Notes under the pieces: generated by a model
Told to the model about the DNA's origin: nothing
What the model saw: only the letters and a program-made list of their open reading frames with translations
Database searches by the model: none
Part shown: in pieces, positions 10,740 to 41,258 of the stretch
Numbering within the stretch: position 1 is the first letter of the stretch
Layout: each line of letters opens with the position of its first letter
Origin: a virus
IMG/VR virus record: IMGVR_UViG_3300050120_000053
Coordinates: 1,291-65,290 of that record
Reading direction: 5' to 3' (one strand)
DNA: 64,000 nt
Translations under genes and position numbers: made by a program

Positions 10740-11603
10740 ATGAAAGCAACGCAAATCACGTTATCAGTAGTCCTTGCATTTTCGGCAATCGCAGCACAGG
10801 CTCAATCTAACCCGGCAGCAGCCGGTATCGCTGGCGCAAGCGTCGGCAGCAAGATCAGCGGCACGGTCAGCCTGAGCGGTGGCGGCAGCAGCGAATCGAG
10901 CGCACTGAACAAGCAACTGTCGTCGGCAACGGTAACGACTGCGACCAGCTCGGCAGCGAACAACGCAGCGGCTGCAGTGACGGGCACGACGTTCCAGACC
11001 GGCAGCAATCAGGCGTGGAACTACACGGTCGGCAATGGCAGCGGCACGGCGGCTTCGCAAGGCACGAACAGCGCTGGAACGCTCGGCATCGCCAACGTCA
11101 ACCAGATCGGCGTCGGCAGCTTCGCTCCGGTTGGTCTGACGGGTGACCTCGCTGGTGCTGGCGGCTCGCTCGTGACCATCGGTGACAACACCAGCGTCGG
11201 CACGAACCAAGGCCAGATCAGCGCCACGCAGGGTAACGGCACATGGAACGTGACGCTCGGCGCATCGACGGGCAGCGGCGGCATCGCGATCAACCAGACC
11301 GGCAACGGCTCGTCGTCGAACAACGTGACGCTCTCGACTTCTACCACTGGTGACGTCTCGGTAAGCGCGGCGACCGGCAACGTGAATCTGCAAACGGGCT
11401 TGGGTCCGGTGCAAGGCGACGGCTCGCAAGCGGCGATCTACACGAACCTTGGCGGCGGCACAAACACGCCGACCGGAACAGGTGGATTCGTAGCTGGCGC
11501 GAGCGGCAACGCGGCAGTGATCGACGCAACCGGTACGGGATCAGCTCTGATCCAGTCCATTAACCCCGGCGTGTCGCAACTGGCAACCGTGACCGGCCTG
11601 TAA
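10740..11603 (+). CDS. Secreted G/S/T/A/N-rich low-complexity protein (candidate fibre/amyloid-like subunit)
   Basis: Sec signal ending AQA at aa 21; no Cys, Arg or His; about 8 charged residues in the mature chain. Confidence 0.8.
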   Translation: MKATQITLSVVLAFSAIAAQAQSNPAAAGIAGASVGSKISGTVSLSGGGSSESSALNKQLSSATVTTATSSAANNAAAAVTGTTFQTGSNQAWNYTVGNGSGTAASQGTNSAGTLGIANVNQIGVGSFAPVGLTGDLAGAGGSLVTIGDNTSVGTNQGQISATQGNGTWNVTLGASTGSGGIAINQTGNGSSSNNVTLSTSTTGDVSVSAATGNVNLQTGLGPVQGDGSQAAIYTNLGGGTNTPTGTGGFVAGASGNAAVIDATGTGSALIQSINPGVSQLATVTGL

Positions 11604-35252: not shown

Positions 35253-35683
35253 CAGAAGTTTCCTCCGATTGCAAACACATTTACACCGCCGCTAATCTGC
35301 GTGTCCTGGACGGATGCGACCAGCGAGTACCCGCTCGGCAGAAGCATCGGCATGACGTTCGGATTGTCTACAGCCTCAAGGCCCGCGCCAACGTTGGCCG
35401 AGTTGCAGAACACTGGCGTCACGCCATCGACAGGCGTGATCGCCGGCAAGACGATCTCCTGCCACAGAAAATAGGACGTTCCGTTGTAGACGAACAAGCG
35501 GATCACGCTCGCTGTCGTGGCACCGATCGCGCAGAACGCAATGCGCTCGATGCGCGTGCCGCTTGAACCAGCAGTGAGGACCGTTGCCTTGTTCGTCGGC
35601 GATGTACGCGACGAATCACCGGTCGAGATCAGGCCTACACCGCAAACCGGCGTAGTTGCGAAATTTGGCGTACCTTGTGCCAT
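35252..35683 (-). CDS. Tail fibre-associated structural protein
   Basis: P.F..TP...G.IST....R...TAGSSGTRIERI...LPSGYSL; within the fibre cluster. Confidence 0.65.
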   Translation of the reverse strand: MAQGTPNFATTPVCGVGLISTGDSSRTSPTNKATVLTAGSSGTRIERIAFCAIGATTASVIRLFVYNGTSYFLWQEIVLPAITPVDGVTPVFCNSANVGAGLEAVDNPNVMPMLLPSGYSLVASVQDTQISGGVNVFAIGGNF

Positions 35684-35692
35684 TATTTTTCC

Positions 35693-36559
35693 TTACAGGA
35701 CGAAGCCAGTTTGAAATGCTTGGTTGTACACACCACCAGTTGCACCTTGCGGAACTGCTAGATTGAAAATCCACCAGTCGCCAACGGCATCGGTGATAAA
35801 GAGCGCAGTCGATCCAGATTGAAGAGTGTAGGCACCGCCCGCGCCTGCCCCGTTGAATGCATCGGTCGCATTCGGGTTCAGCGTGATCTGGCCGCCATTA
35901 GCAAAGGCCGAGAAACAGAAGCCGTTCCATAGCGTCGAGGCCTGCACGAGATTGAGCGTGCCGTTACCGACGAAGTTGGCGAAGTGGTTTGCCGCACCGA
36001 CAGTTGCAGAGCCAGATAGCGCAGTGATCGGCTCGTTGCCCTGTACGCCCGATGCCGTGACGCGCATGCTGCCGTCGGCGAGCTTGAGCGCCAGGTCCCC
36101 GGCGCCATCGTTCTTTAGGCCAAGGCCGATACCGAGCGCCGCGACCGCACCGAGCGAAATCGATGACCAGCCAGAGCCGCCAGTGTCAGGGTCGGTGACA
36201 TTGTTGTCGGCAGTGCTCACCCACCACGAGCCACCCGCAGCAGACATCAGCGTCGCGCCCATCGGATAGCCGCCGATAGACGCCGAGAATGTCGCGTCGT
36301 ATCGGACTGCGCCGCCAGCGTTGACCCACTGAATCCATGCGGTGATCTGGTTCAGGATGCCGTTCATATCCTGGCCGAATGGCGGGATCCCGCCCGAGCC
36401 TTCAGGGATGAACGTCACCGGCGGAAAGCCATCGGTGAGCGATGCCGCGCCGGGAGTGGTCAGTATCTGAGATGAGACTGGGATCGGCCGTATAAAGCTG
36501 CTCTGCGCATCTGCAGCGAACGGCAGAGGAAACTTGACAGGTATTTGCGAAGCTATCAT
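35693..36559 (-). CDS. Tail fibre (baseplate-proximal part)
   Basis: GAASLTDGFPP.T...GGIPP.GQDMNGILN...IGGYP.GA; follows DUF2612 gene. Confidence 0.82.
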   Translation of the reverse strand: MIASQIPVKFPLPFAADAQSSFIRPIPVSSQILTTPGAASLTDGFPPVTFIPEGSGGIPPFGQDMNGILNQITAWIQWVNAGGAVRYDATFSASIGGYPMGATLMSAAGGSWWVSTADNNVTDPDTGGSGWSSISLGAVAALGIGLGLKNDGAGDLALKLADGSMRVTASGVQGNEPITALSGSATVGAANHFANFVGNGTLNLVQASTLWNGFCFSAFANGGQITLNPNATDAFNGAGAGGAYTLQSGSTALFITDAVGDWWIFNLAVPQGATGGVYNQAFQTGFVL

Positions 36560-36561
36560 GC

Positions 36562-37185
36562 CTATCCTTGAACTATGGTTGCCAAGACGCCACCCGGCCT
36601 CGGCAGCACATTGGTGTTTTGCAATATCGCAATCTGCAGCGCGGTCAACGTGAATTGAAACGTGTAGGTCATGGTCATGTTTAGGCCGTCCGTCACGTAG
36701 CAAACGAGGCCCGGAAACAGCGTTCTCAGGATCAGGTTCAGCCCCGGTATTGACCCGTCCCAGATGTTCGCTGCGGCCTTAGCCATGATGAGCGTTCTGA
36801 ACGCATCATCTGAAAGTGTGGCGTTTCCAGCTAACGCCTCGCCGGAATAGAAAGGCGACTGATTAAACGGATCGGCACTTAGCGTCCCAGCCTCTTGAAA
36901 GCCGAAATACTTCTGCGTGATGCCGGGTATCACGCGAGTCACGCCTACAATGCGCCCCCACACATCCAGCCCATATCCGACCGCCGTCTCAATGTTCCAA
37001 AGCTGGTCATAGAACGCGTCGATGTTCTGAGTTGGATCAACGTTCTGCGAGAAGTAATCGATCCATTGCAGAATTACCGGACTGTTCGCGTACTGGCTTA
37101 GAATCGTCTGCGTCCAGTCGAACGGCTGTGACCCGATGGCGCTTTCGCCTATGACAAACTGGCCGATGCCGTTCGGTGCGGTCAT
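36562..37185 (-). CDS. Baseplate wedge protein, DUF2612 family
   Basis: TILSQYANSP...WNIETA.GYGLDVWGRIVGV.R...LSDDAFR.LI..KA..NI. Confidence 0.88.
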   Translation of the reverse strand: MTAPNGIGQFVIGESAIGSQPFDWTQTILSQYANSPVILQWIDYFSQNVDPTQNIDAFYDQLWNIETAVGYGLDVWGRIVGVTRVIPGITQKYFGFQEAGTLSADPFNQSPFYSGEALAGNATLSDDAFRTLIMAKAAANIWDGSIPGLNLILRTLFPGLVCYVTDGLNMTMTYTFQFTLTALQIAILQNTNVLPRPGGVLATIVQG

Positions 37186-37781
37186 GGCAGAGTGAGTTGG
37201 CTAGAGGGCCACGTCGGCGTTTGCCCAGCATTCGCCTGAGAATGAGCAAACTGCAGCGCGTAGGTGTAGTTCATCATTGATGTGGCGAATTCATTCCACT
37301 GCGCTTGAGTGAAAGTCGCGCTTGTGCCGTTCGGATCGAAGTAGGCGAAACTTGAACCGCCACCAGGGAGACCTCGGCCCGCTGCGATTGAGGTTTCTAC
37401 GCTGGTGATATTCGCCTGCGCGGTTGCATTGGCGGCTTGCCCGGTGATAGAGGGAGCCGTGAACGTTCCGGTGTTTGAGGGAACGCAAACCGTCGAGCCG
37501 CTTGCGCAAGACACCGCAATGGGCGCGGCCAGTGCTTGCGCATATTGCTGGTCAGGTGTCAGTGTCTGAGCCGCTGGAGCGGTGAATGTCCCGTTGGCGT
37601 AGGCCCAGCCGATCCCAGCATTGCCCGTCAAAGGAACGGCGGAGTCGCCAGCCGGCGGGGTGTATGCGCTCACGCCATCCCATGCGATGACGTTGACGAC
37701 GGCCCCGTTATTGACGAGGGCATAATTGCCTGCAAATGCGGGAGCGCTTACGAGCGCGAGAGCGAGGAAGAGAGAGCGCAT
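37182..37781 (-). CDS. Fibre-chaperone-like protein with a Sec signal peptide
   Basis: MRSLFLALALVSAPAFA-GNYALVNNG.VVNVI.WDG...IGW.Y..G.F.AP; RBS GGAG; Cys pair. Confidence 0.7.
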   Translation of the reverse strand: MRSLFLALALVSAPAFAGNYALVNNGAVVNVIAWDGVSAYTPPAGDSAVPLTGNAGIGWAYANGTFTAPAAQTLTPDQQYAQALAAPIAVSCASGSTVCVPSNTGTFTAPSITGQAANATAQANITSVETSIAAGRGLPGGGSSFAYFDPNGTSATFTQAQWNEFATSMMNYTYALQFAHSQANAGQTPTWPSSQLTLP

Positions 37782-39577
37782 CAGATCACTCCATTGATGT
37801 TGCACTCACCAGCAGCACCAGATCCGCCAGTGCCGTTGTAGGTTCCACCACCGCCACCTCCAGGCTGGGCGCCTGCGCCAGCAGCGCCAGAATTTGAGCC
37901 CGCCCCGCCAGCGCCGCCAAAGACTGATGTGCCTCCGGCGTAAGCCGTTGAGCCGTTACTGCCACCGCCACCACCACCGCCATAGACCGATTTTCCGGCA
38001 GCGGCATTCTGCGTGCCACCTCCTGCGCCACCCCACGCGGAATTTGCACCGACTCCGCCCCCGCCCAGTCCGGGCCCATCGCTTCCAGATGTTGATGCGC
38101 CTGGCGCGCCACCGGTGGTTCCGATCCCCACAGACAGCGATCCACCGCCCCCGCCCCCGGAAGGTGATCCGGCGATGAACGTGGAAGCGGCGCCGCCGTA
38201 TGAGGTCAGGAGGGAGCCGAGCGTTGAGCTATTGCCGGCCGTACCGGGCGCCGACGAGCCAGCTACCGTGCATGTAACCGCAGCCCCGGGAGTGCCAATA
38301 GAAGGAAAGTTATACGGCACAGCTGCACCTCCTCCGCCTCCATAGACGCTGTTGGATGCGCCTGAATATCCGCCACCTCCACCACCCCAAAGAATCCCCG
38401 TGAATGCCTGATAGCCAGGAGGGATCGTGATCGTCGTCGTCGAGAGAAGCTTGAGCGAGAACGGGTTGAGAACGACGCTGTAAAAGTTCGTCCCGTCCGT
38501 GTTGACGATCCGCACTTCGCCCGGGTACATCACATACGATGACAGGCCGTCAACCGTTCCCGATGCGGGAGAAAGCGTAATGTTGCCCGTGCCTGCGTTC
38601 TGAACGATGACCCACCATCCGTTGCCGAGCGTCGTCGGCGAGGTAAGCGTCAGCGCCCAAGTGCCGGTTGCGTACAGAACGGACGAGCTATCCGTGCCAA
38701 TGGCCGTATAGGCCGAAGTGTGAGTCGACCGCTTGAGTGTGCTTGCGCCCGTCGACCCATTCGATGCGAGTGTGATGCGGCCCGCTGCATCGTAGGCAAG
38801 AACACACGACGTGCACGTACCCGCGCCCACGCCGGTCGGCGCCATCATCGTTGACGTGACGGTGCCGGTATCGTTGCTACCGACGAGCGTTCCACTCGGC
38901 GGGAACGTGACGGCCGTGTTATTGGTGAGCGTGCCCGTGAAACTGTAGGTGCTGCCGCTAAGCGATACCGCATGACCGCCAATTGCATGAACCGCCGTAG
39001 CGGTAGAGCCTGCGGTCGAGGTCACATCGCCAGTGAACGCCGGCATCGTCGAGGAAGCTAGGATTCCTCCTGCGCCAAGCGCCGGGATATTGCCGCTTGC
39101 AGACCCAATGGGTGTTGAGCAAGCAGTCGAGGCATTCGAGAGGTCCGAGCACGCGGCTTGAGTGACAACACCCGAGCCGTTCCCGCGCAGCGCGCCCATG
39201 ACCGCGCCAGCGCCGCCGTAGTTCGACCCGATCAGCGTGCCTTGCCACACCCCCGCCGTGATCGTGCCGAGCGTGGTAATGCTCGTCGCGCCGGTCCATG
39301 TGCCGGCTGCGATTTGCGACAGGATCGACGAGTAGGGCTGAATATTGCCGCCAGGCGTCAACCCGAGATTGGTCTGCGCTTGCGCTGCGGTCGTGGCACC
39401 CGTCCCGCCGAGATTGATCGGGAGACCTGCGGGGTTGTAATTGAGCTTTCCCGCGAAGTAGCTATTCCACTGGCCGGGAGTCGGCACTTGGCCGTAAGTG
39501 AATCCTGGCGCAGACTGGCCGAATGACGCGCACGACAGCAGGGCCATCGCAATGAACAACGAGAGGCGTTTGAGCAT
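37781..39577 (-). CDS. Glycine-rich tail-fibre-like protein with a signal-peptide-like N-terminus
   Basis: MLKRLSLFIAMALLSCASFG-QS; PINLGGTGATTAAQA..NLG fibre repeat; C-terminal WGGGGGG glycine-rich domain. Confidence 0.72.
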   Translation of the reverse strand: MLKRLSLFIAMALLSCASFGQSAPGFTYGQVPTPGQWNSYFAGKLNYNPAGLPINLGGTGATTAAQAQTNLGLTPGGNIQPYSSILSQIAAGTWTGATSITTLGTITAGVWQGTLIGSNYGGAGAVMGALRGNGSGVVTQAACSDLSNASTACSTPIGSASGNIPALGAGGILASSTMPAFTGDVTSTAGSTATAVHAIGGHAVSLSGSTYSFTGTLTNNTAVTFPPSGTLVGSNDTGTVTSTMMAPTGVGAGTCTSCVLAYDAAGRITLASNGSTGASTLKRSTHTSAYTAIGTDSSSVLYATGTWALTLTSPTTLGNGWWVIVQNAGTGNITLSPASGTVDGLSSYVMYPGEVRIVNTDGTNFYSVVLNPFSLKLLSTTTITIPPGYQAFTGILWGGGGGGYSGASNSVYGGGGGAAVPYNFPSIGTPGAAVTCTVAGSSAPGTAGNSSTLGSLLTSYGGAASTFIAGSPSGGGGGGSLSVGIGTTGGAPGASTSGSDGPGLGGGGVGANSAWGGAGGGTQNAAAGKSVYGGGGGGGSNGSTAYAGGTSVFGGAGGAGSNSGAAGAGAQPGGGGGGTYNGTGGSGAAGECNINGVI

Positions 39578-41200: not shown

Positions 41201-41258
41201 CGAGTAGGCGTAAAAAAACCCGCTCGAGGCGGGTTGATTGTCTGGGGCGAAGCGCGGT

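Follow-up and report, generated by a model that had tools for sequence, protein, structure and literature searches.

A fibre gene and its partner between two baseplate genes

We analysed 64,000 nucleotides (nt) of the IMG/VR virus record IMGVR_UViG_3300050120_000053 (positions 1,291 to 65,290; hereafter the window), centring on two consecutive genes that code for a tail-fibre-like protein and a small partner protein, each beginning with an export-type leader (Table 1). The complete record comprises 70,257 base pairs (completeness assessed with CheckV), of which the window is a part. The window encodes a full contractile-tailed phage with all late genes on the minus strand, including head and packaging genes (terminase, portal, protease, major head protein), tail genes (sheath, tube, tape measure), fibres, a GH19-type endolysin, and the baseplate genes for the hub, a gp25-like sheath initiator, baseplate J and DUF2612, the last now named Phage_Wedge1 (Wedge1).

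The junctions around the pair are tight. Three nt separate the stop codon of J from the ATG of the fibre gene, the fibre stop and partner ATG overlap as TGATG, with GGAG about 8 nt upstream of the partner ATG, and the partner stop and Wedge1 start overlap as ATGA; the pair is translationally coupled to J and Wedge1. A crude consensus scan found no sigma-70-like promoter near the two genes. Because the pair has neither a promoter-like site nor intergenic gaps, we rejected the reading that it is a moron and assign it to the late baseplate operon, not to a self-expressed insert. A terminator-like hairpin with a T-run lies further upstream (41217-41235, minus strand), within the 58 nt that separate baseplate J from the gp25-like gene, so that J, the leader-bearing pair, Wedge1 and the fibres may form a separate or attenuated transcription unit.

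An earlier note on this DNA had claimed that the pair interrupts a usual adjacency of J and DUF2612, and a comparison of 23 related loci gathered through Wedge1 bears this out: the two genes are directly adjacent in ten loci, a leader-bearing fibre gene lies between them in six, and in two it follows the primary fibre. The same note had pointed to a separate, signal-less fibre set at 34139-36559, which is indeed present as judged from sequence and a phrog match. Its primary fibre is of a type found directly downstream of Wedge1 in related loci too.

Table 1 Features of the fibre and partner genes and of their neighbours, with positions in the window. Arrows mark predicted cleavage; aa, amino acids; ORF, open reading frame; pLDDT, predicted local distance difference test.
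Feature	Position	Strand	Evidence
Baseplate J-like wedge protein, 539 aa	39581..41200	-	Pfam PF04865; phrog_6
Fibre-like protein, 598 aa	37781-39577	-	ORF between J and Wedge1
Predicted Sec-type signal peptide of fibre, aa 1-20, MLKR + hydrophobic core + SFG↓Q	39518..39577	-	Sequence and relatives
Conserved mature N-terminal module of fibre, aa 21-47, candidate docking peptide	39437..39517	-	16 invariant columns, 11 proteins
Fibre shaft, aa 48-282, GGTGATT-type motifs, Cys pairs C143/C153 and C255/C258	38732..39436	-	Sequence
Beta-sandwich domain before tip, aa 283-375	38453..38731	-	Conserved in 102-sequence alignment A1; AlphaFold2 pLDDT >95
Glycine-rich tip domain Gly_rich_2, aa 379-592	37802..38443	-	PF21722, 26.9 bits vs cut-off 24.3
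Partner protein, 199 aa	37182-37781	-	ORF between fibre and Wedge1
Predicted Sec-type signal peptide of partner, aa 1-17, MR + hydrophobic core + AFA↓G	37731..37781	-	Sequence and relatives
Partner N-terminal beta domain, aa 18-73, YAxVxxGxVxNVIxWDG...IGWxY	37563..37730	-	phrog_14370, E 5e-11
Partner C-terminal helical domain, aa 85-199, including stop codon; Cys pair C92/C99	37182..37529	-	PF14301 (weak)
DUF2612 / Phage_Wedge1 baseplate wedge protein, 207 aa	36562..37185	-	PF11041, E 1e-54
Primary signal-less tail fibre, 288 aa, conserved tail-fibre N-terminal region	35693..36559	-	phrog_12796 'tail fiber protein', E 3e-38
Rest of signal-less fibre set: 143-aa, 297-aa glycine-rich and 72-aa proteins	34139..35683	-	Sequence; gene order shared by L001

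Predicted export signals on both proteins

The export-type leaders claimed in the earlier note (MLKR...SFG↓Q in the fibre, MR...AFA↓G in the partner) are present and, as read from the sequence, have the n-, h- and c-region layout of signal peptidase I substrates; the hydrophobic core of the fibre leader spans 11 residues. Homologues keep them. Fibre leaders recur in P0002-P0006, P0140-P0181 and the loci L073-L089, and partner leaders in P0122-P0130, in every case with divergent sequences. As they drift, the leaders retain a positive tip, an unbroken hydrophobic core and small residues at -3 and -1, and all leader-bearing relatives fit the signal peptidase I layout (positive n-region, core of 10-15 residues, small -3/-1). 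Leaderless partner relatives start 1-4 residues before a conserved Tyr (M-x-YAxV), at the predicted cleavage position. The earlier note would have counted its reading as refuted had homologues lacked the signals, which they do not, or had the true starts lain downstream of the hydrophobic segments; the next in-frame start codons (fibre codon 31, partner codon 37) fall within conserved mature sequence and have no ribosome-binding site.

Because relatives keep the leaders while the leader sequences diverge, and because the cleavage sites match the starts of signal-less relatives, the leaders are not start-codon artefacts, and both proteins begin at their annotated ATGs. Leaders were called with a crude hydropathy filter that makes a few false calls (P0070, P0141, P0323). 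In the window it picks out 9 of 235 ATG ORFs read in six frames, which serves as an estimate of chance. Leader conservation in homologues appears to us a stronger argument than this chance rate, and on such grounds both proteins are very probably exported via Sec.

An invariant mature N-terminus before variable distal parts

Past its predicted cleavage site, the fibre begins Q-S-x-P-G-F-x-x-G-Q-x-P-T-x-x-Q-W-N-S-Y-F-x-x-K, a module of about 27 residues (N-module) that does not vary among at least 18 proteins, which are 268-1512 aa long (alignment A4 for the column count in Table 1). It heads mutually unrelated distal parts, one of which (L075) ends in an S74 intramolecular chaperone domain. 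Every protein seen with the N-module has a leader in front of it, with no leaderless copy among the matches, and all readable gene contexts are baseplate clusters of the E217/Pam3 type. A constant head with swappable tips is what marks receptor-binding proteins whose docking partner is conserved. In the Paraburkholderia fungorum genome GCA_046026255.1, the second prophage (L001) has a Mu-like baseplate and encodes a 614-aa protein whose tip is 66% identical to that of the window fibre; its N-module is a different one, with which the leaderless protein P0066 also begins. In a collection of isolated phages, the N-module had no match, tblastn of the whole fibre gave one short match (aa 289-365), and the partner matched via its N-domain only.

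Two loci contain three or four leader-bearing fibre-like ORFs in succession (L076 1594-5175, L097 7001-9831), and the last ORF of the L076 run is glycine-rich by composition without a Pfam match. These runs look like a multi-part fibre of which every segment would be exported.

The distal part of the fibre agrees with the earlier description of fibre repeats followed by a glycine-rich tip. The shaft region matches repeats of signal-less fibres, the tip matches the Gly_rich_2 profile, and its predicted fold matches the virion fibre tips of phages Pam3 and Bxb1. An AlphaFold2 model of residues 270-598, built with 102 homologues, reached a pLDDT of 95; Foldseek matched it to the Bxb1 tail tip (9d93_Qa, E 4e-5) and the Pam3 fibre (7ypx_A, E 3e-4), at TM-scores of only 0.31-0.43, and also to the ALK/LTK glycine-rich domain. 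The beta domain that precedes the tip resembles, by structure search, the tailspike N-domains of CBA120 TSP4 and Solidus gp83. A library of predicted viral structures yielded 402 matches at E <= 0.001, many of them named glycine-rich domain proteins, and a protein search recovered 263 homologues; most of the 120 listed have PF21722. The fibre profile had no match among PDB sequences. The idea that the fibre carries the same tip as the phage's own signal-less set is unsupported, as BLASTP found no similarity to the window's 297-aa glycine-rich protein, which is also unmatched by PF21722.

The partner resembles a fibre chaperone

The partner had been described as chaperone-like, and its predicted structure points the same way. 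AlphaFold2 modelled it at a pLDDT of 95.6, with strands in residues 2-49 and helices in residues 58-166. Exhaustive structure alignment against 48,161 PDB representatives placed 7ypx_a first (Z 6.5, 142 residues, root-mean-square deviation (r.m.s.d.) 7.7 Å), with a match that spans the full length of the partner; the next row (Z 4.9) covers the helices only. We take 7ypx chain a to be Pam3 gp25, because its 162 residues equal the published length of that chaperone. Foldseek returned nothing at E <= 0.001 and listed 7ypx_a second (E 0.17), and the partner profile (A2) had no match at E <= 1 among all PDB sequences. A Pfam scan at E <= 0.1 gave only DUF4376 (PF14301; 18.5 bits, below the cut-off of 25), with no Caudo_TAP match; among relatives, P0190 has an unmarked PF14301 match and P0194 and P0209 have weak ones. 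Judging by the model, the partner is probably a fibre chaperone of the Pam3 gp25 type.

The window's 72-aa protein (34139-34357), which follows the 297-aa glycine-rich protein, is leaderless and resembles the partner N-domain: it matches P0221 at E 8e-16, and P0221 is itself a match of the 199-aa partner. By sequence, one phage thus appears to make exported and leaderless flavours side by side, although PF21722 leaves the 297-aa protein unmatched. Other arrangements of the two partner domains also occur. In the 298-aa metagenomic protein P0137, the partner N-domain (MAKYGIVKGGVVINVISYDG...) is fused to a Gly_rich_2 domain within a single protein. On the contigs of P0128 and P0129, leader-bearing proteins of 241-242 aa share only the C-terminal domain of the partner and lie in long-tailed phage modules, after a SPRY-like gene or before an S74 fibre gene and not beside a glycine-rich gene, which suggests that the exported C-domain serves other fibre types too.

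Recurrence of the leader-bearing form

We drew partner relatives from a HMMER search of 1.84 billion representative proteins, which found 707, and examined the best 145 for leaders. About 27 of these 145 have one. In about 60 loci, from viruses and from genomes, the partner N-domain is encoded directly after a glycine-rich gene, nearly always leaderless and starting M-x-Y, and the signal-less state is likewise the norm among glycine-rich fibre relatives (about 113 of the 120 listed, out of 263).

A leader on the partner went with a leader on the fibre in all nine pairs in which both genes were readable and the partner has a leader (the window, L001, L003, L005, L098, L099, L100, P0002/P0126 and P0003/P0125). 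These include, beside the window, two prophages of one P. fungorum genome, an alphaproteobacterial provirus (L005), a long-tailed phage resembling gene transfer agents (L099) and a contig with a P22-type stabilisation protein (L098), so that the contexts span contractile-tailed, long-tailed and P22-like phages. In the long-tailed contexts (L005, L099, L100), we saw no fibre-like gene other than the leader-bearing one. Sequence comparison thus presents the putatively exported form as a recurrent flavour of a common module.

Cysteine pairs, noted earlier in both proteins, are present in the fibre (C143/C153, C255/C258, C436/C592) and in the partner (C92/C99). Close leader-bearing partners have even Cys counts of 2-6, whereas the leaderless relatives that the first search returned have 0-2; the even-count pattern applies to close relatives only, and many leader-bearing partners in the wider set from the 1.84-billion-protein search have no Cys at all. 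We rejected Cys as an export mark in the large fibre family, where proteins without a leader have about as many Cys and, in some cases, the C-terminal one as well.

Comparison with known systems

The closest known counterpart is the gp24/gp25 pair of Pam3 (PDB 7ypx), in which a two-domain chaperone embraces the fibre tip 3:3; the Pam3 baseplate is built of J-like and Wedge1-like proteins (PMC9608196, PMC9942802). In both phages a beta domain and a polyglycine-type glycine-rich tip form the end of the fibre, the gene that follows codes for a two-domain chaperone or chaperone-like protein (N-terminal beta-sandwich of about 55 aa, linker, C-terminal helical part), and the baseplate is of the same family (J-like wedge protein, Phage_Wedge1, Pam3_gp18 plug, sheath initiator); structure searches retrieve 7ypx chains for both window proteins. 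The two systems differ in that fibre and partner both have Sec leaders in the window, whereas Pam3 gp25 starts at Met1 directly with its beta-sandwich and has none (PMC9608196). There is no detectable sequence similarity between the pairs. At its N-terminus the Pam3 fibre has a helical domain whose Cys28 bonds to the wedge, whereas the window N-module has a different sequence and no Cys, and the window Wedge1 has one Cys and none of the Cys-rich loops described for Pam3 gp23. Finally, the window fibre comes as an extra set, in addition to a primary fibre that has no signal.

Salmonella phage S16 gp38, which the Pam3 study brings into comparison (PMC9942802), and the Bxb1 tail-tip protein (9d93_Q) share the distal glycine-rich lattice domain, taken as receptor-binding; these proteins were found on virions. 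To our knowledge, neither gp38 nor the Bxb1 protein has a leader. A similar layout exists in the MAT fibres of Bdellovibrio bacteriovorus, which combine a signal peptide, an invariant N-terminal anchor, a phage-fibre-like shaft and swappable tips, some with S74 (PMC10769870). At the level of layout, L075 compares with them in carrying an S74 domain behind a window-type N-module, but MAT genes are cellular and their products are displayed on the predator surface, whereas the window family lies inside phage baseplate operons, and the MAT anchor domain is about 130 aa, as against an invariant part of about 27 aa.

The beta domain of Pam3 gp25 has been likened to the N-terminus of TfaMu (PMC9608196). 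Like the Tfa proteins of Mu, P2 and lambda (Caudo_TAP), the partner is a small protein encoded directly after a fibre gene; it differs from them in having no Caudo_TAP match and in carrying a leader. Exported accessory proteins are known near phage tail genes, such as lambda Lom and Bor, T5 Llp and Cor, all of them small lipoproteins or outer-membrane proteins and often expressed from a promoter of their own. The window pair resembles them in being leader-bearing and in or beside a tail-fibre region, but none of them is fibre-like or paired with an exported chaperone, and the window pair has no promoter-like site.

Our literature search, which was not exhaustive, turned up no tailed phage in which a tail fibre or fibre chaperone is described as exported through Sec. 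The parts of the module are of a known kind (Pam3-type fibre and chaperone), and it is the export signals on both that we did not find described. What the window adds is a predicted export that fibre and chaperone share concordantly, together with the invariant N-terminus of the mature fibre.

A proposed route through the periplasm

We propose, with a probability of about 55%, that the pair is an exported fibre-chaperone module, that is, a fibre and chaperone of the Pam3 gp24/gp25 type retargeted to the periplasm by cleavable Sec signals. SecYEG would export both chains unfolded, and signal peptidase I would cut the fibre between G20 and Q21 and the partner between A17 and G18. In the periplasm, the co-exported chaperone would hold the glycine-rich tip while the fibre trimerises, and the paired Cys would be oxidised, with which the even Cys counts of close leader-bearing partners agree. 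Holin, endolysin and outer-membrane disruption would merge the compartments at lysis, whereupon the mature 27-residue N-terminus would dock the fibre on the E217/Pam3-type baseplate. Next to its signal-less primary fibre, the phage would then have the exported one as a second, exchangeable set.

Docking to virions at lysis is the part of this proposal to which we give somewhat less than an even chance. We favour it because the N-module is constant before unrelated distal parts, one with an S74 chaperone domain, and stands in E217/Pam3-type baseplate clusters wherever its gene context was readable; because the Mu-like prophage of the same host genome uses a different N-module; because the pair is tightly coupled to baseplate genes without a promoter-like site; and because the leader-bearing protein is the only fibre-like gene seen in the long-tailed contexts. 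Complex prediction with Wedge1 and three copies of the mature N-terminal 90 residues of the fibre scored 0.27 against a mark of 0.32, in a run without controls, and counts neither for nor against docking. A further point for docking comes from Pam3, in which the fibres are disulfide-bonded to the wedge and detach from it under reducing agent (PMC9942802). We infer that fibre-wedge disulfides of this type would close only after the virion has left the reducing cytoplasm. That widespread tailed phages fold and oxidise exchangeable fibres in the periplasm with a co-exported chaperone and attach them after the holin breach, with the N-terminus as docking peptide, is a tentative generalization, and the odds are rather against it.

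Several points weigh against the proposal. We know of no tailed phage that adds a periplasmic part, and lysis rapidly dilutes whatever the periplasm contained. The phage already encodes a full set of signal-less fibres, so the virion may not need the exported fibre. The case for export is built on sequence logic and conservation, and the co-variation of N-module and baseplate type may reflect shared descent alone. The match to Pam3 gp25 is moderate (Z 6.5, r.m.s.d. 7.7 Å), with no sequence-profile match in the PDB, and Cys separate leader-bearing from leaderless members only for the partner, not among the large fibres.

The strongest alternative, which we hold to be possible though short of probable, is that the pair is exported but never joins the virion, and that the producing cell's envelope or debris is where the fibre acts. 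Candidate roles are those of a receptor mask or decoy that protects progeny from debris, a means of superinfection exclusion, or a cell-bound adhesin whose N-terminus binds an envelope component. The T5 lipoprotein Llp protects progeny from adsorption to debris in this way. Such a role would suit a phage whose virion has its own signal-less fibres and a gene that is accessory (about 8 of the 23 related loci), and it requires no new assembly route; Bdellovibrio MAT fibres, moreover, share the layout in a cell-surface system (PMC10769870). However, a Sec leader alone ends in the periplasm, where external receptors are inaccessible, and a decoy released at lysis would need no export. The genes are coupled to late baseplate genes and have no promoter-like site for expression in a lysogen, and a non-virion role leaves L005, L099 and L100 with no other fibre-like gene seen. 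Two prophages in one host genome differ in their N-module, one of them having a Mu-like baseplate, which a phage-side binding partner fits better than an envelope component.

The earlier note had also raised a lipobox-like LLSC in the fibre. Cleavage by signal peptidase II at LLS↓C16 would make the 598-aa protein a lipoprotein tethered to the outer membrane. Its ALLSC at residues 12-16 loosely follows the lipobox consensus against which we tested it ([LVI][ASTVI][GAS]C where the hydrophobic core ends), and the nearest relatives (P0002, P0003, P0140) retain this motif. Across the N-module family, however, members either lack the Cys or have it outside a lipobox position, whereas small-x-small↓Q and the start Q-S-x-P-G-F never vary, and in P0004, P0005, P0006 and the L005 protein the cleavage site is plainly of the signal peptidase I type. 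All of this makes a lipoprotein improbable. It is less probable still, even though tailed-phage structural proteins are normally cytoplasmic, that the hydrophobic N-termini are mis-called starts or buried segments of cytoplasmic virion proteins, given starts fixed by coupling and a ribosome-binding site, downstream starts inside conserved mature sequence, leaders that diverge freely yet keep their positive tip, core and small -3/-1 residues, and signal-less relatives that begin exactly at the predicted cleavage sites.

In textbooks, the assembly of tailed phages is wholly cytoplasmic. Export of the pair would imply new biology under either of the two leading readings, as a final assembly step that awaits lysis or as phage-made fibre-like exoproteins that act on the envelope. 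In practice, the finding bears on annotation, in which such genes are labelled tail fibres and taken for virion parts, and on host-range prediction, fibre engineering and the periplasmic production of disulfide-bonded fibres. The invariant 27-residue N-terminus offers a concrete handle for pull-downs and mutagenesis.

Other leader-bearing and lysis-region genes

Two further ORFs in the window begin with leaders. A 111-aa ORF on the opposite strand beyond the fibre cluster (33661-33996, plus strand) has a clear Sec-type leader (MIRYLAALALFVPLMASA↓QQ) and no Pfam match, and is a candidate moron; a 287-aa ORF in the early region (10740-11603, plus strand) has a leader that ends AQA↓QSNP and no Pfam match.

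Lipase-type genes lie in or beside the lysis region of several phages with the leader-bearing fibre module, a small count taken without a control set. Patatin (PF01734, above cut-off) occurs in the window (27272-28297, minus strand) and in the alphaproteobacterial provirus L005 (10366-11301). GDSL-type lipases occur in L096 (9874-10956) and on the P0128 contig, Lipase_3 in L100 (6666-7307) and on the P0164 contig, and a lipase-type gene lies at 4822-6237 of L003.

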